In this document: piece after piece, positions 52,641 through 63,100 of the stretch
How positions within the stretch are numbered: the first letter of the stretch is position 1
How the letters are laid out: every line of letters begins with the position of its first letter
Source: Escherichia coli
GTDB lineage: Bacteria > Pseudomonadota > Gammaproteobacteria > Enterobacterales > Enterobacteriaceae
Length of the DNA: 64,000 nt
Reading direction: 5' to 3' (one strand)
NCBI RefSeq assembly: GCF_041248615.1
Contig: NZ_CP158426.1
The notes under the pieces: generated by a model
Databases searched by the model: none
Seen by the model: the letters and a program-made list of their open reading frames with translations, nothing else
What the model was told of the DNA's origin: nothing
Position numbers and translations under genes: made by a program

Positions 52641-54491
52641 ATGGCCTTATTACAAATTAGTGAACCTGGTTTGAGTGCTGCGCCGCATCAGCGTCGTCTG
52701 GCGGCCGGTATTGACCTAGGCACAACCAACTCGCTGGTGGCGACAGTGCGCAGCGGTCAGGCCGAAACGTTAGCCGACCATGAAGGCCGTCACCTGCTGC
52801 CGTCTGTTGTTCACTATCAACAGCAAGGGCATTCGGTGGGTTATGACGCACGTACTAACGCAGCGCTTGACACCGCCAACACCATTAGTTCTGTTAAACG
52901 CCTGATGGGGCGCTCGCTGGCTGATATCCAGCAACGCTATCCGCATCTGCCTTATCAATTCCAGGCCAGCGAAAACGGCCTGCCGATGATTGAAACGGCG
53001 GCGGGGCTGCTGAACCCGGTGCGCGTTTCTGCGGACATCCTCAAAGCACTGGCGGCGCGGGCAACTGAAGCCCTGGCAGGCGAGCTGGATGGTGTCGTTA
53101 TCACCGTTCCGGCGTACTTTGACGATGCCCAGCGTCAGGGCACCAAAGACGCGGCGCGTCTGGCGGGGTTGCATGTTCTGCGCTTACTTAACGAACCGAC
53201 CGCTGCGGCTATCGCCTACGGGCTGGATTCCGGTCAGGAAGGCGTGATCGCTGTTTATGACCTCGGCGGCGGGACGTTTGATATTTCCATTCTGCGCTTA
53301 AGTCGCGGCGTGTTTGAAGTGCTGGCGACCGGCGGTGATTCCGCGCTCGGCGGCGATGATTTCGACCATCTGCTGGCGGATTATATTCGCGAGCAGGCGG
53401 GCATTCCTGATCGTAGCGATAACCGCGTTCAGCGTGAACTGCTGGATGCCGCCATTGCAGCCAAAATCGCGCTGAGCGATGCGGACTCCGTGACCGTTAA
53501 CGTTGCGGGCTGGCAGGGCGAAATCAGCCGTGAACAATTCAATGAACTGATCGCGCCACTGGTAAAACGAACCTTACTGGCTTGTCGTCGCGCGCTGAAA
53601 GACGCGGGTGTAGAAGCTGATGAAGTGCTGGAAGTGGTGATGGTTGGCGGTTCTACCCGCGTGCCGCTGGTGCGTGAACGGGTGGGCGAATTTTTCGGTC
53701 GTCCACCGCTGACTTCTATCGACCCGGATAAAGTCGTCGCTATTGGCGCGGCGATTCAGGCGGATATTCTGGTGGGTAACAAGCCGGACAGCGAAATGCT
53801 GTTGCTGGATGTGATCCCGCTGTCGCTGGGCCTCGAGACCATGGGCGGCCTGGTGGAGAAAGTGATCCCGCGTAATACCACGATTCCGGTGGCCCGCGCC
53901 CAGGATTTCACCACCTTTAAAGATGGTCAGACGGCAATGTCTATCCATGTGATGCAGGGTGAACGTGAACTGGTGCAGGACTGCCGCTCGCTGGCGCGTT
54001 TTGCACTGCGTGGTATCCCGGCGCTACCGGCTGGCGGCGCGCATATTCGCGTAACGTTCCAGGTCGATGCCGACGGTCTTTTGAGCGTGACGGCGATGGA
54101 GAAATCCACCGGCGTTGAGGCGTCTATTCAGGTCAAACCGTCTTATGGTCTGACCGATAGCGAAATCGCTTCGATGATCAAAGACTCAATGAGCTATGCC
54201 GAGCAGGACGTAAAAGCCCGTATGCTGGCAGAACAAAAAGTAGAAGCGGCGCGTGTGCTGGAAAGTCTGCACGGCGCGCTGGCTGCTGATGCCGCGCTGT
54301 TAAGCACCGCAGAGCGTCAGGTCATTGACGATGCTGCCGCTCACCTGAGTGAAGTGGCGCAGGGCGATGATGTTGACGCTATCGAACAAGCGATTAAAAA
54401 CGTAGACAAACAAACCCAGGATTTCGCCGCTCGCCGCATGGACCAGTCGGTTCGTCGTGCGCTGAAAGGCCATTCCGTGGACGAGGTTTAA
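52641..54491 (+). CDS. hscA: Hsp70-type chaperone HscA
   Basis: ORF trimmed to [31 protein letters not shown]..., 616 aa. Confidence 0.96.
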
Positions 54492-54492
54492 T

Positions 54493-54828
54493 ATGCCAAA
54501 GATTGTTATTTTGCCTCATCAGGATCTCTGCCCTGATGGCGCTGTTCTGGAAGCGAATAGTGGTGAAACCATTCTCGACGTTGCGCTGCGTAACGGTATC
54601 GAGATTGAACACGCCTGTGAAAAATCCTGTGCTTGCACCACCTGCCACTGCATCGTTCGCGAAGGTTTTGACTCGCTGCCGGAAAGCTCAGAGCAGGAAG
54701 ACGACATGCTGGACAAAGCCTGGGGACTGGAGCCGGAAAGCCGTTTAAGCTGCCAGGCGCGCGTTACCGACGAAGATTTAGTGGTCGAAATCCCGCGTTA
54801 CACTATCAACCATGCGCGTGAGCATTAA
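54493..54828 (+). CDS. fdx: [2Fe-2S] ferredoxin
   Basis: 111 aa, adrenodoxin-type Cys pattern ([12 protein letters not shown]...C). Confidence 0.96.
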
Positions 54829-54839
54829 CAGAGGTTAGT

Positions 54840-55040
54840 ATGGGACTTAAGTGGACCGATAGCCGCGAAATTGGCGAAGCACTGTACGATGCGTATCCCG
54901 ATCTTGATCCGAAAACGGTTCGATTCACCGATATGCATCAGTGGATTTGCGATCTGGAAGATTTCGACGACGACCCGCAGGCATCCAACGAGAAAATCCT
55001 CGAAGCGATTTTGTTAGTCTGGCTGGACGAAGCCGAATAA
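54840..55040 (+). CDS. iscX: IscX (YfhJ)
   Basis: 66 aa, acidic ([29 protein letters not shown]...). Confidence 0.93.
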
Positions 55041-55231
55041 TTTCCGCGTCATGCTTCACGCCGCAGATGCGTTGGCTGCGCTCGTTCACCCCAGTCACAT
55101 AGTTATCTATGCTCCTGGGGCTTCACTCACTTGCCGCGTGATTCGGCCTTTTGGCCTCACCCCTTTGGGGCCAGCGCAAGCGCTGTTCAAAACGCAATGC
55201 GTTTTGTCCTGCAACGCGAATCATTTAGCGG
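55041..55231. repeat. ERIC (IRU) element carrying a roughly 69-bp internal insertion
   Basis: CGTCATGCTTCACGCCGCAGATGCGTTGGCTGCGCTCGTTCACCCCAGTCAC...ATGCTCCTGGGGCTTCACTCACTTGCCGCG matches the ERIC core (compare ERIC primers CGCTCACCCCAGTCACTTACTT and ATGTAAGCTCCTGGGGATTCAC). The ERIC tail TCCTGCAACGCGAATCATTTAG resumes only after an extra block at about 55138-55206. Confidence 0.7.
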
Positions 55232-55284
55232 AAAAATCCTGGGGCTGCCAACTGGCGGCCCTTTTACAAAGAAGGATAACTAAA

Positions 55285-56568
55285 ATGACAGAAGCGATGA
55301 AGATTACCCTCTCTACCCAACCTGCCGACGCGCGCTGGGGAGAAAAAGCGACTTACAGCATTAATAATGATGGCATTACCCTGCATTTGAACGGGGCAGA
55401 CGATCTGGGGCTGATCCAGCGTGCGGCGCGCAAGATTGACGGTCTGGGCATCAAGCATGTTCAGTTAAGCGGTGAAGACTGGGATGCGGATCGCTGCTGG
55501 GCATTCTGGCAAGGTTACAAAGCCCCGAAAGGCACACGTAAAGTGGAGTGGCCGGATCTGGACGATGCCCAACGGCAGGAACTGGATAACCGCCTGATGA
55601 TCATCGACTGGGTGCGTGACACCATCAACGCACCGGCGGAAGAACTGGGGCCATCGCAACTGGCACAGCGTGCTGTTGATCTGATCAGCAATGTCGCGGG
55701 CGATCGTGTGACTTACCGGATCACCAAAGGCGAAGATCTGCGTGATCAAGGTTATATGGGGCTGCACACGGTCGGACGCGGTTCAGAACGTTCTCCGGTA
55801 TTGCTGGCGCTGGATTACAACCCGACTGGCGATAAAGAAGCGCCAGTGTACGCGTGCCTGGTTGGTAAAGGCATCACCTTTGATTCCGGCGGCTACAGTA
55901 TCAAACAGACCGCATTTATGGACTCGATGAAGTCGGACATGGGCGGCGCGGCAACGGTTACCGGGGCGCTGGCGTTTGCCATTACGCGCGGACTGAACAA
56001 GCGCGTGAAGCTGTTCCTCTGCTGTGCGGATAACCTGATCAGCGGCAACGCGTTCAAACTGGGCGATATTATTACCTATCGCAACGGTAAAAAAGTTGAA
56101 GTGATGAACACTGATGCGGAAGGGCGTCTGGTGCTGGCCGATGGCCTGATTGATGCCAGTGCGCAGAAACCGGAACTGATCATTGATGCGGCGACCCTCA
56201 CCGGGGCGGCGAAAACTGCGCTGGGTAATGATTATCACGCGCTGTTCAGTTTTGACGATGCGCTTGCCGGTCGCTTGCTGGCGAGTGCCGCGCAGGAGAA
56301 TGAACCGTTCTGGCGTCTGCCGCTGGCGGAGTTCCACCGCAGCCAGCTGCCGTCTAACTTTGCCGAACTGAACAATACCGGAAGCGCGGCGTACCCGGCA
56401 GGCGCGAGCACGGCGGCGGGCTTCCTGTCGCACTTTGTTGAGAACTATCAGCAAGGCTGGCTGCATATCGACTGCTCGGCGACTTACCGTAAAGCGCCGG
56501 TTGAACAGTGGTCTGCGGGTGCTACGGGACTTGGTGTGCGCACGATTGCTAATCTGTTAACGGCGTAA
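55285..56568 (+). CDS. pepB: aminopeptidase B (M17)
   Basis: ORF 55051-56568 trimmed to ATG 55285 ([21 protein letters not shown]...), 427 aa, M17 motif NTDAEGRL. The upstream in-frame extension runs through ERIC. Confidence 0.95.
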
Positions 56569-56651
56569 ACGTCTTATTTGGCCTACAAAATTGCGAAAAT
56601 CCAATAGATTGAGATTCCCTTGTAGGCCTGATAAGCGTAGCGCATCAGGCA
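56568..56651. repeat. REP-derived repeats downstream of pepB
   Basis: GTAGGCCTGATAAGCGTAGCGCATCAGGCA (56622-56651) plus a partial arm CGTCTTATTTGGCCTAC (56570-56586). Confidence 0.6.
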
Positions 56652-56686
56652 CTTGTGCCCCGAACGTTGAATGAATTGTGGTTCTT

Positions 56687-57463
56687 ATGTCCGAAACAAA
56701 AAACGAACTTGAAGATCTGCTGGAAAAAGCAGCAACCGAACCGGCGCACCGCCCGGCCTTTTTCCGTACTCTACTGGAATCCACCGTCTGGGTGCCGGGT
56801 ACGGCGGCGCAGGGCGAGGCTGTGGTTGAAGATAGCGCGCTTGATTTACAGCACTGGGAAAAAGAAGACGGCACCAGCGTCATTCCTTTTTTTACCTCGT
56901 TAGAAGCACTTCAACAGGCGGTTGAAGACGAACAGGCATTTGTCGTAATGCCCGTTCGCACATTGTTTGAGATGACCCTTGGCGAAACGCTCTTCCTTAA
57001 TGCCAAACTGCCAACCGGTAAAGAATTTATGCCGCGTGAAATCAGTTTGTTGATTGGTGAAGAAGGAAATCCGCTGAGCAGCCAGGAAGTACTGGAGGGC
57101 GGTGAATCGCTGATATTATCGGAAGTCGCAGAGCCGCCAGCACAAATGATTGATTCACTCACCACCTTATTTAAAACTATTAAGCCGGTGAAGCGTGCTT
57201 TTATTTGTTCAATTAAAGAGAACGAAGAGGCACAGCCTAATTTACTTATTGGCATTGAAGCCGATGGTGATATCGAAGAAATTATTCAGGCGGCGGGAAG
57301 TGTAGCGACCGATACATTACCTGGCGATGAACCCATCGATATTTGTCAGGTGAAAAAAGGGGAAAAAGGAATTAGCCACTTTATTACCGAACATATTGTG
57401 CCATTCTATGAACGTCGCTGGGGTGGTTTTTTGCGTGACTTTAAACAGAACCGGATAATCTAA
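56687..57463 (+). CDS. sseB: SseB (enhanced serine sensitivity protein)
   Basis: ORF trimmed to MSETKNELEDLLEKAATEPAHRPAFF..., 258 aa. Confidence 0.9.
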   Translation: MSETKNELEDLLEKAATEPAHRPAFFRTLLESTVWVPGTAAQGEAVVEDSALDLQHWEKEDGTSVIPFFTSLEALQQAVEDEQAFVVMPVRTLFEMTLGETLFLNAKLPTGKEFMPREISLLIGEEGNPLSSQEVLEGGESLILSEVAEPPAQMIDSLTTLFKTIKPVKRAFICSIKENEEAQPNLLIGIEADGDIEEIIQAAGSVATDTLPGDEPIDICQVKKGEKGISHFITEHIVPFYERRWGGFLRDFKQNRII

Positions 57464-57466
57464 AAT

Positions 57467-57488
57467 ATGCCGCCCCAAAGGGCGGCAT
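57467..57488. terminator. bidirectional hairpin shared by sseB (plus strand) and the ryfA-like transcript (minus strand)
   Basis: ATGCCGCCC caaa GGGCGGCAT. On the minus strand it is followed by ATATTTTA. Confidence 0.7.
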
Positions 57489-57494
57489 TCGGGC

Positions 57495-57620
57495 TTACCT
57501 GCTGTTCTGAAGGTTGTTAACCACCAGTAAATTGTTGCCGGAGAGACTCCGGTTATTATTTACCTCGGTTAACAGCGCACCAGAAACAATAAGTACGATA
57601 CAAAAGCACCGTATCTTCAT
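57495..57620 (-). CDS. 41-codon hydrophobic small ORF inside ryfA (TimP-like type I toxin candidate)
   Basis: My own translation of the minus strand: MKIRCFCIVLIVSGALLTEVNNNRSLSGNNLLVVNNLQNSR, with the stop abutting the terminator. N-terminal signal/TM-like segment. The start is buried next to hairpin TGCGGTC...GACCGCA (57622-57643). Below the ORF-track cutoff. Confidence 0.5.
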   Translation of the reverse strand: MKIRCFCIVLIVSGALLTEVNNNRSLSGNNLLVVNNLQNSR

Positions 57621-57794
57621 TGTGCGGTCCATGCGAAGACCGCATCACGACAGCACCACTGGCGATATTGCCGCGATAGCAAGCGCTGTGAAACACCTGC
57701 ATTTACGGCCATGGAACATCCTTTCCTTAAGCCAGCGCCCGTTTGCGAGACGGCGGAAAGGGCCGGTGTCGATAATACGCTAAATAAACAATGA

Positions 57795-58927
57795 TTACTC
57801 TCTTTCGCTGTGTAAGTTCACAGAGATATTGCAATTACCTCCGGATAAGTAAGGGGAGATTGCACTATGCAAATGCAGCATCTGATGGTTGGCTATCCTA
57901 AGTACTACCAAACGGCCGATTATGCGTTGAGGCTTTCAGTGATGGCTGATACAGCAACAATGAGAATGAAGGCTCTGCACTTCTGGGATAAACACGGTAT
58001 TTCTGCAGCTTCTGAAGCCTTTGGCGTGTCCTGCCGCACGCTTTACTGGTGGCGTCAGTTACTGAACAAGGGAGGACCTGAGGGGCTAATCCCGCACAGT
58101 AAGGCACCTCTGGTGCGACGAAAAAAGCACTGGCATCCCGATGTGCTGAAAGAGATTCGACGGCTGCGGACAGAGCTGCCGAACCTCGGTAAAGAGCAGA
58201 TTTTTGTTCGCCTGAAGCCCTGGTGCGAACAGCGCTATCTGGCCTGTCCAAGTGTTTCCACCATCGGCAGAATGATCGCTGCCGCACACGATAAAATGCG
58301 AATGATACCTGTGCGTCTGGGCTCGCGGGGGAAGGCACTGCTTGTCAAAAAGCGGTCTGCCAAACCCCGCAGACCAAAGCACTACCGCCCGGTAAAGACA
58401 GGTGAGCTCATTGGGATGGACGCCATTGAGCTCAGAATGGGCGAACTGCGTCGCTATGTCATCACCATGATCGACGAATGCAGCAATTACGCGCTGGCGC
58501 TGGCTGTACCGTCGCTCAACAGTGATATCGTCAATCACTTCTTCAGCCGTGCAGCCCGGCTGTTCCCGGTCGGTATCAGTCAGATAATCACAGATAACGG
58601 AAAAGAGTTCCTGGGAAACTTCAACAAAACGCTGCAGGAAGCCGCTATCAAACACCTCTGGACCTATCCCTACACGCCAAAAATGAACGCTATCTGTGAA
58701 CGTTTTAACCGGACGTTAAGAGAGCAGTTTATTGAATTTAATGAGATTTTACTCTTTGAAGATCTGGCGCTATTTAATCAGAAGCTGGGGGAATATCTGG
58801 TACTGTATAACAGCAAAAGGCCCCATAAGGCGCTCGCACTAATGACGCCCGTGGAATATATTTTAAGAGAGAACAAAAATTGCAATATGTGGTGGACCCA
58901 TACATTCGCTTGACAAAAAGAGAGTTA
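57795..58927 (+). mobile_element. IS481-family insertion sequence (about 1.13 kb); boundaries provisional
   Basis: Single 348-aa rve/DDE transposase ORF ending 14 nt from the proposed right end. Imperfect terminal inverted repeats: TTACTCTCTTTcgcTGTgtAAG (left) versus the complement of CTTgACAaaAAAGAGAGTTA (right). No flanking direct repeat found. Confidence 0.5.
57867..58913 (+). CDS. IS481-family transposase (integrase-core DDE)
   Basis: 348 aa with SD GGGGAG 8 nt upstream. N-terminal HTH (ASEAFGVSCRTLYWWRQLL). DDE-type motifs GMDAIEL, ITDNGKEF and PYTPKMNAICERFNRTLREQF. Confidence 0.8.
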   Translation: MQMQHLMVGYPKYYQTADYALRLSVMADTATMRMKALHFWDKHGISAASEAFGVSCRTLYWWRQLLNKGGPEGLIPHSKAPLVRRKKHWHPDVLKEIRRLRTELPNLGKEQIFVRLKPWCEQRYLACPSVSTIGRMIAAAHDKMRMIPVRLGSRGKALLVKKRSAKPRRPKHYRPVKTGELIGMDAIELRMGELRRYVITMIDECSNYALALAVPSLNSDIVNHFFSRAARLFPVGISQIITDNGKEFLGNFNKTLQEAAIKHLWTYPYTPKMNAICERFNRTLREQFIEFNEILLFEDLALFNQKLGEYLVLYNSKRPHKALALMTPVEYILRENKNCNMWWTHTFA

Positions 58928-58944
58928 CTGGCGAGTATTGCTTT

Positions 58945-59046
58945 GCTGTGAAGCACCTGCGTTGCTCCGACAACACAAGTCAACCTGCTGGAAAGGCCGC
59001 GAACCAGACCAGCAATAAAAAACCGCCAAATTCGGCGGTTTTTTAT
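58945..59046 (+). ncRNA. candidate antitoxin sRNA (TimR/RyfB-like) for the ryfA toxin mRNA; hypothetical
   Basis: GCTGTGAAGCACCTGCGTT (58945-58963) is a near-copy of 57685-57703, so a plus-strand RNA would pair with the ryfA leader over 19 bp (2 G-U). Putative promoter TTGACA (58910-15)-N17-GAGTAT (58933-38). It would end at the terminator at 59015-59046. Confidence 0.35.
59015..59046. terminator. bidirectional terminator (sseA on minus strand; candidate sRNA on plus strand)
   Basis: AAAAAACCGCC aaattc GGCGGTTTTTT. Confidence 0.75.
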
Positions 59047-59060
59047 TGCCTGTAAAAAGC

Positions 59061-59906
59061 TTATTTCAATGGCTCAACCGGTAAATCTGCCCGTGCGCCC
59101 CATTCACTCCATGCGCCGTCGTACAGTTTCACGTTTGGCACATCCAGCGTCGCGAGTGCCAACAAAACCACGGCTGCCGTTACACCAGAACCGCAACTGA
59201 CGATAATAGGTTTGTCATAACTTACGCCGCGACCAAAAAATATCGCATCCAGTTCATCGGTCGTTTTTAGTTCGCCTTCACGTACCAGTTCTGTCCACGG
59301 AACGTTAAACGCGCCGGGAATATGTCCGCGACGTAAACCTGGGCGAGGTTCATCAACTTCTGCGTTAAAACGTGCAGCCGGGCGGGCATCAATAATTTGC
59401 GCCGTATTTTCATGGCTTGCCAATAACACATCGGTGACTTTCACCACGGCTTCAGGATTAAACGTGGCGTTAAACTCTCCTTCCGGCAGCTCTACTGCAC
59501 CTTCTTCTAACAGCAGATCATCGCGCTGCCAGCCTGCAAGTCCACCCCCCAGAATCGACACTTTCTCTACACCAAAGGTGCGCAGCATCCACCATGCTCG
59601 TGGGGCTGAGAAAAGATTACCTTCGTCATAGACAATCAGGTGCTTATCCTGGTTAACGCCTAATTCACGCATCGCCACGGCGAACGTTTCCGGGCGCGGC
59701 AGCATGTGCGGAAGCGGGGAAGTGTGATCAGAAAGCGCTTCGATATCAAAAAACACTGCGCCGGGAATATGTCCATTCAGATACTCCTGAGCAACGTTAC
59801 GATCTTCCTGTCCAGGCGACGCCATGCGGGCATCAATAATCTGAATTTCCGGGTCATCAATATGTTCGGCGAGCCAGTCGGCTCCTACAAACCATGTCGT
59901 GGACAT
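59061..59906 (-). CDS. sseA: 3-mercaptopyruvate sulfurtransferase
   Basis: ORF trimmed to MSTTWFVGADWLAEHIDDPEIQIIDARM..., 281 aa. Tandem rhodanese domains with active-site motif CGSGVTA. Confidence 0.95.
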   Translation of the reverse strand: MSTTWFVGADWLAEHIDDPEIQIIDARMASPGQEDRNVAQEYLNGHIPGAVFFDIEALSDHTSPLPHMLPRPETFAVAMRELGVNQDKHLIVYDEGNLFSAPRAWWMLRTFGVEKVSILGGGLAGWQRDDLLLEEGAVELPEGEFNATFNPEAVVKVTDVLLASHENTAQIIDARPAARFNAEVDEPRPGLRRGHIPGAFNVPWTELVREGELKTTDELDAIFFGRGVSYDKPIIVSCGSGVTAAVVLLALATLDVPNVKLYDGAWSEWGARADLPVEPLK

Positions 59907-60112
59907 AGGCATCTCCATTTTTGCCGGGGTTAGGCTAAATTGTCGGATGTTTAGTGAAAGGCGACAAGCAAAAGAGGCTGATTTGGCTGTCTGAGCCACA
60001 ATTCTCACTAAAATTCGGATTGTATGGGCGTGATACTGAATTACATAACGTAAATTCTCACGCATAATAATTATTCGACGTTGCTAACGGGCCATTGTGG
60101 CAGGGATGAAAA

Positions 60113-63100
60113 ATGAAAAAGTTACGCGTAGCCGCCTGCATGCTAATGCTGGCGCTGGCAGGGTGCGACAACAACGATAACGCGCCAACAGCGGTGAAAA
60201 AAGATGCGCCTTCTGAAGTTACTAAAGCGGCTTCTTCAGAAAACGTGAGTTCAGCAAAACTTTCCGCGCCGGAGCGACAAAAACTGGCCCAACAGAGTGC
60301 CGGTAAGGCGCTGACATTGCTGGATCTCTCTGAAGTTCAACTTGATGGCGCAGCCACGCTGGTGCTGACGTTCTCCATTCCTCTCGACCCGGATCAGGAT
60401 TTCTCACGCGTTATCCATGTCGTCGATAAGAAAAGCGGCAAAGTGGATGGTGCCTGGGAGCTGTCAGATAATCTTAAAGAGTTGCGTTTACGCCACCTCG
60501 AACCGAAACGTGATTTGATCGTCACTATTGGCAAGGAGGTCAAAGCACTCAACAACGCAACCTTCAGTAAAGATTACGAAAAAACTATAACTACCCGCGA
60601 TATCCAACCCAGCGTCGGTTTTGCCAGCCGTGGCTCGTTGTTACCCGGTAAAGTTATTGAAGGGCTGCCGGTAATGGCGCTCAACGTTAACAATGTCGAT
60701 GTTAACTTCTTCCGTGTTAAGCCAGAATCTCTGCCTGCATTCATTAGCCAATGGGAATACCGCAATTCGCTGGCGAACTGGCAGTCTGAAAAACTGCTGC
60801 AGATGGCGGATCTGGTTTATACCGGACGGTTTGATCTCATTCCTGCGCGTAACACCCGTGAAAAATTATTGCTGCCGCTGGGCGATATCAAACCGCTTCA
60901 GCAGGCAGGCGTGTATCTGGCTGTGATGAATCAGGCTGGACGTTACGATTACAGTAATCCAGCGACGCTGTTTACGTTAAGTGATATCGGCGTTTCAGCT
61001 CACCGTTATCACAATCGTCTGGATATCTTTATCCAAAGTCTGGAAAACGGCGCGGCCCAGCAAGGAATAGAAGTCTCTTTATTAAATGAGAAAGGGCAGA
61101 CTCTGACTCAGGCAACCAGTGATGCTCAGGGGCATGTGCAGCTGGAAAATGATAAAAACGCGGCATTACTGCTGGCGCGTAAAGACGGTCAGACAACGCT
61201 ACTCGATTTAAAACTTCCGGCGCTGGACTTAGCAGAATTTAACATTGCTGGCGCGCCAGGCTATAGCAAACAGTTTTTCATGTTTGGCCCGCGCGATCTT
61301 TATCGCCCTGGTGAAACAGTCATCCTCAATGGTTTACTGCGTGATGCAGATGGTAAAGCATTGCCCGATCAACCCATCAAGTTAGACGTGATTAAACCCG
61401 ACGGGCAGGTACTCAGGAGCGTCGTTAGTCAGCCGGAGAATGGCCTCTACCACTTTACCTGGCCACTCGATAGCAATGCGGCAACCGGTATGTGGCATAT
61501 TCGCGCTAACACGGGCGATAACCAGTACCGGATGTGGGATTTCCACGTCGAAGATTTTATGCCAGAGCGCATGGCGCTGAATCTGACCGGTGAGAAAACC
61601 CCGCTAACGCCGAAAAATGAAGTGAAATTCTCCGTGGTGGGGTACTACCTGTATGGTGCGCCTGCTAATGGTAATACTTTGCAAGGGCAACTTTTCCTGC
61701 GCCCACTGCGTGAAGCTGTGTCAGCCTTACCTGGTTTCGAATTCGGCGATATAGCTGCCGAAAATCTTTCCCGCACGCTGGATGAAGTTCAGTTGACGCT
61801 GGATGATAAAGGGCGTGGCGAAGTTTCTACAGAAAGCCAGTGGAAGGAAACGCATTCCCCATTGCAGGTTATTTTCCAGGGTAGTTTGCTGGAATCGGGC
61901 GGTCGCCCGGTGACGCGCCGCGCTGAGCAGGCTATCTGGCCTGCCGATGCATTGCCGGGGATCCGTCCGCAGTTCGCCTCGAAATCGGTTTACGATTATC
62001 GCACTGACAGCACGGTGAAACAGCCCATTGTTGATGAAGGCAGTAACGCCGCTTTTGACATCGTTTATAGCGATGCGCAAGGCGTGAAAAAAGCCGTGTC
62101 GGGCTTGCAGGTGCGCCTGATTCGCGAACGCCGCGATTACTACTGGAACTGGTCAGAAGATGAAGGCTGGCAATCACAGTTTGATCAAAAAGATCTGATT
62201 GAAAATGAACAAACTCTGGATCTGAAAGCGGACGAAACCGGCAAGGTCAGTTTCCCGGTAGAGTGGGGCGCTTATCGTCTGGAAGTCAAAGCGCCGAATG
62301 AAGCGGTCAGTAGTGTGCGTTTCTGGGCTGGCTATAGCTGGCAGGACAACAGCGACGGGAGCGGTGCCGTGCGACCCGACCGTGTCACGCTGAAACTGGA
62401 TAAAGCCAGTTATCGCCCTGGCGATACCATTAAGTTGCATATTGCCGCGCCAACGGCGGGTAAAGGTTATGCGATGGTCGAGTCCAGTGAAGGGCCGCTG
62501 TGGTGGCAAGAGATTGATGTTCCGGCTCAAGGGCTGGATCTGACGATTCCGGTCGATAAAACCTGGAATCGTCATGATCTGTATTTAAGTACGCTGGTGG
62601 TACGTCCTGGCGATAAATCTCGCTCCGCGACGCCAAAACGCGCGGTTGGGGTGTTGCATCTGCCGCTTGGTGATGAAAACCGTCGCCTCGATCTGGCGCT
62701 GGAAACCCCCACCCAAATGCGCCCCAATCAGCCATTAACCGTGAAAATTAAAGCCAGCAATAAAAACGGTGAGATGCCAAAACAGGTGAATGTGCTGGTG
62801 TCTGCCGTTGATAGCGGTGTGCTAAATATTACTGATTACGTTACCCCCGATCCGTGGCAGGCGTTCTTTGGTCAGAAACGCTATGGTGCAGACATTTACG
62901 ATATTTACGGTCAGGTCATTGAAGGTCAGGGGCGTCTGGCAGCTCTGCGTTTTGGTGGCGATGGTGATGAGCTGAAACGTGGTGGTAAACCGCCGGTCAA
63001 TCACGTCAAAATTGTCGCGCAGCAGGCGCTGCCGGTAACGCTCAACGAACAGGGTGAAGGCTCGGTTACACTGCCGATTGGTGATTTTAACGGTGAATTG

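Follow-up and report, generated by a model that had tools for sequence, protein, structure and literature searches.

Within a 64,000-nucleotide stretch of Escherichia coli DNA (contig NZ_CP158426.1; hereafter the window), the genes pepB, sseB, timP/ryfA, timR, sseA, and yfhM follow one another in that order, and a 1096-bp insertion sequence (IS) of the IS481 family, a relative of ISKpn28 of Klebsiella pneumoniae, stands between timP/ryfA and timR. The same region is found at 100% identity in NZ_OW967178.1 (isolate 362) and NZ_LT599825.1. A sequence-only reading of this DNA had recognized an IS481-type element in the sseB-sseA spacer, lodged between a ryfA-like toxin unit and a putative divergent small RNA (sRNA), and had suggested that its arrival involved a deletion of adjacent DNA or a recombination and that it could have altered the expression of toxin and antitoxin. 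The analysis described here upholds the first part of that reading and leads to a different account of the second. There is nothing unusual about the insertion as such; what stands out is the precise, oriented placement of this group of ISs upstream of sigma-70 promoters.

All of the features that define timP/timR are present in the toxin-antitoxin (TA) locus that flanks the IS, namely the ryfA leader RNA family, a small hydrophobic TimP open reading frame (ORF), and a divergent complementary sRNA. The minus-strand unit with a 41-amino-acid (aa) ORF, as previously described, is matched over its full length by Rfam RF00126 (model positions 1-296 of 296; 320.5 bits versus a gathering score of 80), and its predicted product is identical to RefSeq TimP WP_004974226.1, which is annotated in the identical records and in IS-free ones. 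The terminator that this unit was said to share was recovered by a terminator scan, and the block to the right, suspected of encoding a divergent pairing sRNA, is timR: it aligns with K-12 timR (b4811) without gaps and at 95% identity. The first 19 nucleotides (nt) of timR, as read from the sequence, are complementary to timP mRNA positions +64..+82 if two G-U pairs are counted. Because the genes are divergent, this complementarity shows up as a direct repeat (D3). Folding of the whole-RNA TimR–timP duplex gave a meaningless long-range structure, and the plain 19-nt complementarity was used instead. Judged by these features, the ryfA/timP–timR locus is a genuine type I TA locus and the published system, with the same RNA, ORF, and divergent TimR as in Salmonella and E. 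coli, except that here 1.1 kb of IS parts the back-to-back promoters; no IS at this locus is mentioned in the timP/timR literature searched. In Salmonella, TimP toxicity and the repression of its translation by TimR have been demonstrated, and TimR blocks timP translation by destabilizing a pseudoknot in the 5' untranslated region (UTR) (PMC7667032, PMC11228461). A sub-threshold match of TimR (window 58966-59047) to Rfam AgrB, the dinQ antitoxin RNA, was also seen (32.7 bits versus 40, E=0.004); it covers mainly the 3' stem-loops and the terminator.

The limits of the IS are set by independent copies at other loci (prophage hokD, F-plasmid hok, a prophage region, and others), each of which starts with TGTGTAAG, ends with CCCATACA, and is exactly 1096 bp long. 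The edges had earlier been placed at about 57795-58927, and the termini proposed on that basis, TTACTCTCTTT and AAAGAGAGTTA, are in fact a native inverted repeat that is present in IS-free loci. With the ends at their true positions, 57809 and 58904, the direct repeat that had been reported missing is seen as a perfect duplication of TTCGC (57804-57808 and 58905-58909). In the IS-free strain CM2 (L001) the locus reads …CTCTCTTTCGCTTGACAAAAAG… with one TTCGC, whereas the window has TTCGC on both sides of TGTGTAAG…CCCATACA, and alignment of the window to this locus runs up to 57809 on the left and resumes from 58905 on the right. Perfect 5-bp duplications are also found in most of the other full copies (TCTCC, CCCTC, ATGTC, AGCAC, GCTGT, CGCTT, TTCAT, and CCGAT). 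The terminal repeats are about 28 nt long and imperfect, with 21 of 28 matches between left and right (counted by eye), and their tips are TGT…ACA.

The sequence-only reading had favored an IS-linked adjacent deletion or recombination, in which several hundred base pairs of the ryfA-sseA spacer would have been lost and the timP -35 element replaced. This proposal drew on the lack of a visible repeat with the ends put at 57795 and 58927 and on the view that the K-12 spacer is several hundred base pairs longer. In K-12, timR and ryfA are indeed farther apart, by about 322 bp (NC_000913.3 2653490-2653817, L004). However, the extra DNA is a partial tandem duplication of the K-12 lineage, consisting of a timR-like copy (82% identical) and a 60-bp fragment of the ryfA promoter, and does not reflect a loss in the window strain. 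Furthermore, when the IS and one TTCGC are subtracted from window positions 54464-62060, the remaining 6496 nt equal the length found in the IS-free strain Res13-Lact-PER13-34 (NZ_CP062824.1), with 37 substitutions and zero insertions or deletions; within the TA locus, the two sequences differ only by a silent substitution in timP. Over 496 nt, the reconstructed empty site shares 99.8% identity with three IS-free genomes. Given the perfect duplication and this indel-free collinearity, the event was a simple insertion with a 5-bp duplication and no deletion. The alignment to IS-free genomes, which had been named beforehand as the means of refuting the earlier idea, places the ends elsewhere, with a clean duplication and with both core promoters intact outside the IS, including the timP -35 position 8 nt away; the probability left to a deletion is close to negligible.

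Where the IS lies with respect to the two promoters can be derived from the K-12 and Rfam 5' ends, which place +1 at about 57766 for timP and at 58945 for timR. By this reckoning the IS starts at timP -44, its last base is timR -41, and it lies 8 nt from the timP -35 position. The two starts are 78 bp apart in the empty site, and the IS therefore sits in a short gap (9 bp by count) between back-to-back -35 regions. The assignment of TATTAT (57772-57777) as the ryfA -10 agrees with the mapped 5' end and probably stands, but the statement that the -35 position falls inside the IS does not, as that position (57795-57800) is outside it. Both core promoters, the timP ORF, the TimR RNA, and the pairing sites are intact outside the IS (Table 1).

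Table 1. Coordinates of the IS, the promoters, and the TA locus in the window
Feature	Position	Strand	Basis or remark
IS481-family IS, 1096 bp, ISKpn28 relative	57809..58904	+	same unit bounded identically at at least 7 other loci
Target-site duplication, left copy TTCGC	57804..57808		alignment to IS-free locus; junction table
Target-site duplication, right copy TTCGC, equal to timR -40..-36	58905..58909		alignment to IS-free locus; junction table
Left terminal inverted repeat TGTGTAAGTTCACAGAGATATTGCAATT	57809..57836		core ATATTGCAATT pairs with 58878-58888 (repeat I15)
Right terminal inverted repeat AATTGCAATATGTGGTGGACCCATACA	58878..58904		identical in this IS, ISKpn28-like copies, and the 93% variant
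Transposase ORF, 348 aa	57867..58913	+	ORF list; NCBIfam IS481; Pfam rve, rve_3, HTH_28
timP -10 TATTAT (probable)	57772..57777	-	-12..-7 from mapped 5' end 57766
timP -35 position GAGTAA, weak, 17 bp upstream of -10 (putative)	57795..57800	-	placed by spacing only
timR -35 TTGACA, directly abutting the duplication	58910..58915	+	sequence; promoter-register analysis
timR -10 GAGTAT, 17-bp spacer	58933..58938	+	-12..-7 of K-12-mapped timR 5' end
Native inverted repeat, left arm TTACTCTCTTT	57795..57805		contiguous with right arm in IS-free L001
Native inverted repeat, right arm AAAGAGAGTTA, inside timR promoter spacer	58917..58927		present in IS-free L001
sseB coding sequence, left neighbor	56687..57463	+	RefSeq annotation of NZ_OW967178.1 (100% identical) mapped over; ORF list
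Hairpin terminator common to sseB (+) and timP/ryfA (-)	57467..57488		terminator scan; equals 3' stem of Rfam ryfA alignment
ryfA RNA = timP mRNA, 5' end ~57766	57462..57766	-	Rfam RF00126; K-12 5' end 2653855 maps there
timP ORF, 41 aa (MKIRCFCIVLIVSGALLTEVNNNRSLSGNNLLVVNNLQNSR), AUG at mRNA +147	57495..57620	-	translation; RefSeq TimP annotation
TimR-pairing site, timP 5' UTR +64..+82	57685..57703	-	direct repeat D3 with 58945-58963, 17/19 identical
timR antitoxin sRNA, 100 nt, 5' 19 nt pair with timP mRNA	58945..59044	+	K-12 b4811 (2653356-2653455) mapped
timR terminator hairpin, toward sseA 3' end	59012..59049		inverted repeat I2, 19 nt, 95% complementary
sseA coding sequence, right neighbor	59061..59906	-	mapped RefSeq annotation

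The native 11-bp inverted repeat TTACTCTCTTT/AAAGAGAGTTA (10/11) straddles the target, so that the IS splits it, and its left arm overlaps the timP -35 position. Such a repeat could be an operator common to both promoters or a mirror-image arrangement of the promoters themselves.

The transposase is encoded by one intact DDE ORF, with no programmed frameshift, and is matched by the Pfam models rve, rve_3, HTH_28, and HTH_32 and weakly by LZ_Tnp_IS481. Its best NCBIfam model is IS481 (NF033577), at 219 bits and thus just under the curated cut-off (224 bits), with E=9e-65 and a match that covers positions 2-283 of the 284 in the model; the runner-up is IS3, at 97 bits. In RefSeq, variants of this IS are named "IS481 family transposase". 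It was on this best match, together with the rve and helix-turn-helix domains, that the family assignment of the sequence-only reading was confirmed. Within the IS, the transposase ORF does not meet a stop codon. Instead, the frame reads ACA/TTC GCT TGA (window 58902-58915; the slash marks the end of the IS), and the TGA at 58911-58913 lies within the timR -35 hexamer TTGACA. Where the IS has entered next to other TTGA-type -35 hexamers, the tail contributed by the host is likewise 2 aa (FA, AV, FI, RF, and others), and at TTGC-type hexamers the ORF continues into the flank, which yields proteins fused to host sequence. Database versions of the transposase are 348-573 aa long, and their C-terminal tails differ by site.

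In many respects the IS resembles ISKpn28. Both belong to the 1096-bp length class and have near-identical terminal repeats (the right 30 nt are identical), a single-ORF DDE transposase without an internal stop, and 5-bp duplications; furthermore, copies of ISKpn28 are found at the same position before the sok promoters of plasmid hok loci. The two differ in sequence, with about 75% nucleotide and 79-80% aa identity. By the convention of ISfinder, ISs are the same if they share more than 95% aa or more than 90% nucleotide identity, and the IS in the window is therefore a different one; it is treated here as a separate member of the ISKpn28 subgroup, a placement that follows from these identities.

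When the right flanks of copies at other loci are aligned, a pattern emerges that consists of the 5-bp duplication, then TTG(A/C)nn, 17 bp, and a TAnnnT-like hexamer; no other column is conserved. A weight matrix for the -35 and -10 hexamers, applied to the right flanks at 20 unrelated insertion sites of this IS and of its ISKpn28 relatives, gives a mean register score of 6.3 at offset 5 from the IS end, compared with a background of about -8, and the score drops within one base on either side. At 15 of the 20 sites the score exceeds the 99.5% background quantile at offset 5 only (binomial P=5e-31), and a -10 element above the 95% quantile accompanies 12 of the 13 sites that have TTG at offset 5 (P=3e-15). 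The orientation is fixed: the right end of the IS faces the promoter, and the transposase gene reads promoter-wise. When viral contigs were searched for the conserved right end, nine further distinct non-sok sites came to light, of which six fit the pattern, and at one insertion site the downstream gene is avtA. The placement in front of sigma-70 promoters, precise to the nucleotide and in one orientation, is thus real, and it is found above all at the promoters of type I antitoxin RNAs. No earlier description of promoter targeting by IS481 or ISKpn28 was found in the literature searched, a search that lay outside ISfinder and TnCentral.

The type I loci provide the clearest view of this placement. 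At least eight different hok-family genes have the IS or ISKpn28 3-13 nt ahead of their start codon, always with its left end toward the toxin ORF. These include hokB, prophage hokD, plasmid hok of E. coli and Klebsiella, a hok-like gene between iap and cysH, and others (examples are L005 2339-3765, L006 2337-3765, L056-L060, and L070). In each case the IS directly precedes the sok promoter, and the Rfam sok model matches right after the IS; the hok ORF is thereby severed from its Shine-Dalgarno (SD) sequence, leader, and promoter. The spacing to the RNA is also the same at timR and sokB, as the timR 5' end lies 7 nt past GAGTAT and that of K-12 sokB 7 nt past TAAGAT. In an E. coli locus between a ybbP-like FtsX gene and selU (L062 834-2368), a DinQ-family small ORF is found to the left of the IS and an AgrB-family RNA to the right (Rfam, 53.6 bits; threshold 40), which begins 7-8 nt past the TATAAT of TTGAAT-17-TATAAT. 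Thus, timP/timR is not the only divergent locus of type I-like character to be struck in this way. A further copy, in Escherichia albertii between yfhL and acpS (L074 769-2313), is situated some 290 bp upstream of an ORF of 26 aa, which is ShoB-like by its size and its yfhL–acpS position. We take this to be the shoB/ohsC locus, a type I TA locus.

Three other descriptions of the target were tried and set aside. Targeting of a hairpin loop (TTACTCTCTTT…AAAGAGAGTTA here, the SD hairpin at hok) was dropped, as the promoter register fits all of the sites better. The idea that most copies reside in toxin loci failed on the counts: among 5426 complete E. coli genomes surveyed for junctions, there are 13 occupied junctions at timR, 55 at hokD, and 34 at plasmid hok, versus 1138 records with a near-full copy. 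Finally, a second motif, TTGC at the transcription start, was considered as part of the target and is absent from the phage promoters and other promoters that are hit. TTGC does lie at or next to the transcription start in timR, sokB, hokD sok, L058, L060, the agrB-like RNA, and L065, and its G is +1 in timR and sokB; it may characterize these sRNA promoters and not the target of the IS.

The placement beside toxin genes raises another explanation, in which insertion is near-random and selection does the rest, so that copies next to type I toxin genes persist because they silence the toxin or are harmless there. The separation of the hok ORF from its SD sequence, leader, and promoter should indeed silence the toxin, and Pedersen and Gerdes are said to have described, in 1999, IS150 and IS186 beside hok genes in K-12. 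However, selection cannot account for a register exact to one nucleotide, or for an unvarying orientation, at promoters as unrelated as those of avtA and of phages. Moreover, the toxin genes of the timP/timR and dinQ-like/agrB-like loci retain both promoter and leader, and nothing is silenced there. Because the register is exact and the orientation fixed, the pattern does not come from selection alone, and this explanation is considered very improbable.

At timR itself the insertion has recurred. In the junction survey, 13 of the 5426 genomes have the IS beside timR at one identical nucleotide position and without any change of orientation; these 13 represent several backbones. The +/-3-kb flanks of the occupied loci differ by 2-5% across these backbones, and the IS is identical or near-identical in three of them; the copy in the window lineage is 2.3% apart from the copy of the other backbones (the L009 type). 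In strain IAL7255 the immediate flanks are different and the duplicated bases are those of its own allele, TTTGC; when the empty site of this strain is reconstructed, it matches six IS-free genomes at 100% identity. In addition, in one lineage (three IS-bearing genomes) the IS lies within the K-12-type duplicated structure, beside the distal timR.

It could be argued that there is no hotspot and that a single ancestral insertion was inherited vertically or was spread by homologous recombination of the occupied locus. Occupied genomes are few, the 45-50 bp that directly flank the IS do not differ between the window, L008, L009, L012, and L013 (L010 is one base off in the left duplication copy), and the 2.3% divergence of the IS between the window and the L009 type resembles that of the flanks (about 3%). 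Yet the TTTGC duplication of IAL7255, with its own flanks and an empty site found in six IS-free genomes, contradicts one shared imported tract, and the IS is 100% or 99.9% identical between backbones whose flanks are 3-5% apart. Moreover, both IS variants are active at other loci, the IS of one lineage lies in the K-12-type duplicated structure, and one ancient insertion would need to have been lost precisely in more than 99% of genomes. A single origin is therefore improbable. By these sequence comparisons, at least two independent insertions at the timR site must be taken as certain, and four or five are likely.

Taken together, these results favor an account, to which a probability of roughly 85% is assigned, in which the ISKpn28-related 1096-bp IS was inserted in the ordinary way between the timP and timR -35 regions, at the promoter register. 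In this model, the IS transposed by cut-and-join into the gap between the divergent promoters, duplicating TTCGC and removing nothing. The position is no accident: as the flanks show, the IS group selects sigma-70 architecture, usually TTGnnn, 17 bp, TAnnnT, and inserts 5 bp upstream of the -35 hexamer in a single orientation, with the transposase gene co-directional with the promoter, and this makes the timR promoter a recurrent hotspot. What reads the promoter is most likely bound RNA polymerase holoenzyme, or the DNA bend that the holoenzyme makes at about -38. This reading is preferred because recognition of the two hexamers at a spacing of 17 bp is known for the holoenzyme alone. A broader proposal, namely that ISKpn28-group elements are promoter-seeking, that they recognize sigma-70 promoters that are probably polymerase-bound, integrate in one orientation at exactly 5 bp before the -35 hexamer, favor the strong constitutive promoters of antitoxin RNAs (Sok, TimR, and an AgrB-like RNA), use the host TTGA as a stop codon, and repeatedly leave toxin genes uncoupled or silenced, can be given about even odds.

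Several points weigh against the favored account. A consensus promoter scan of 57440-59080 detected no promoter, nor does it point to one that reads outward from the ends of the IS; the scan was blank because it required 4/6 matches per hexamer and the timR -10, GAGTAT, has 3/6. The timP -35, GAGTAA, is a poor match, and if timP needs upstream sequence, the presence of the IS at -44 could matter more. Five of the 20 scored sites (L003, L074, L078, L088, and L091) are off register, as is the separately scored decayed copy of ColV plasmids. Three of these off-register sites are in prophages, two belong to decayed copies of 93% identity, and one is the shoB site, and the rule is therefore dominant, not absolute. 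The right flank of the shoB site (TACAG/GATAAC…) does not fit the -35 rule although this is a type I toxin locus. Furthermore, the sites sampled are whatever the collections returned rather than an unbiased map of new insertions, and the support for the register consists of matches to the -35 and -10 consensus. Finally, the ends of the IS contain TTGCAA, and the transposase might thus read a TTG(C/A) motif directly.

This last point leads to the explanation that RNA polymerase is not involved and that the transposase reads the register from the DNA itself, for example as N5-TTG(A/C), which resembles the TTGCAA of its own ends. The sequence ATATTGCAATT occurs in both IS ends, about 20 bp from the tips; the -35 TTG is the anchor even where the spacer is 18 bp; and the TTG is near-invariant, with the remainder of the -35 hexamer variable. 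In addition, a domain search of the transposase N-terminus found no sigma-70 region-4-like domain and no feature that ties the transposase to the transcription machinery. On the other hand, among the 13 unrelated sites with TTG, 12 also have a -10-like hexamer at a distance of 16-18 bp, where 5% would be expected (P=3e-15), and no further spacer position is conserved. For a transposase to have come independently to read the bipartite 6-17-6 signal of sigma-70 would be a remarkable coincidence. Direct reading of the DNA is thus regarded as rather unlikely, though it is a serious competitor to recognition through the holoenzyme.

Recognition of a promoter-bound complex would have a conceptual counterpart in eukaryotes. 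The yeast retrotransposon Ty3 integrates at RNA polymerase III start sites, where it is placed to the nucleotide by the promoter-bound transcription complex. Ty3 is a eukaryotic retroelement, however, and for the IS in the window such a protein contact is a hypothesis. Among bacterial elements, IS481 and IS1002 of Bordetella share with the IS the DDE transposase best matched by the IS481 model, the TGT…ACA ends, and a short duplication. IS481 of Bordetella duplicates 6 bp at NCTAGN, whereas the IS in the window duplicates 5 bp of variable sequence, and its conserved signal lies outside the duplication, in the -35 and -10 hexamers. IS150 and IS186 recur beside chromosomal hok loci of K-12, and IS186 has a hotspot in the lon promoter; this hotspot follows a G/C-rich target and not a -35/-10 register across many promoters. 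These two elements belong to other families than the IS in the window, and the likeness lies in the presence of an IS beside type I toxin genes and in a hotspot within a promoter region. The closest formal analogue of insertion 5 bp from a -35 hexamer in one orientation is provided by the IS1202 family (ISAjo2 group), which inserts at dif/pdif in one orientation and at a fixed 5 bp from the XerC half-site (PMC10132070). The IS1202 family is a different IS family, and its landmark is a recombinase site, not a promoter.

For timP/timR, the insertion would uncouple the two promoters by 1.1 kb and would remove the native sequence upstream of about -41 to -44 from each of them; for timR, this would be an A/T-rich stretch. 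As the transposase gene has neither its own stop codon nor a terminator, its transcripts would have to run through timR to the timR terminator and would carry TimR sequence in their 3' part. The toxin ORF and its flanks contain no compensating changes, and the flanks in IAL7255 are identical to those of empty sites; a small effect is therefore expected, in which the TimR:timP ratio would change modestly if at all and neither RNA would be lost. The changed toxin/antitoxin expression that had been postulated is thus possible in a weaker form only, by way of the displaced upstream sequences and of transposase read-through into timR. For the locus the outcome is deflationary: the insertion is clean, and there is no evidence for an IS-driven deletion or for obvious rewiring.

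If the broader proposal is correct, however, an IS positioned to the nucleotide against the -35 and -10 hexamers would represent a new mode of target choice in bacteria, with its closest parallels in the IS1202 family at Xer sites and Ty3 at polymerase III promoters. It would also explain the variable C-termini of annotated ISKpn28-type transposases and the occurrence of such transposases beside hok/flm loci in prophages and in the leading regions of plasmids, where ISKpn28 co-localizes with FlmC (preprint PMC12248084). For the biology of type I TA systems, the insertions would be a recurrent natural perturbation, in which the hok ORF is cut from its leader at hok loci and divergent promoters are set 1.1 kb apart at the timP/timR and dinQ-like/agrB-like loci, and such loci can be compared between natural isolates that carry the IS and those that lack it.

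As for the wider distribution of the IS, a scan of species-representative genomes with the transposase returned only fragments from E. albertii, and a metagenome scan with the left end of the IS returned mostly one locus, which carries a 43-bp remnant of an IS end. In strain IAL7255 (NZ_CM130730.1) the IS is matched at 37 places and in RM14723 (NZ_CP027103.1) at 13, numbers that suggest recent bursts of transposition. A decayed and frameshifted copy of 92-93% identity, with internal stops and without a matching duplication, is present between iss and iroB (L113, 1501-2585, and L114; these are two sampled hits out of 1090 plasmid places, on plasmids that are apparently of the ColV type). It looks like a fossil inherited with the plasmid and probably accounts for many of the 1090 places. 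A second copy of 93% identity lies between galF and yegH on some chromosomes (L003).

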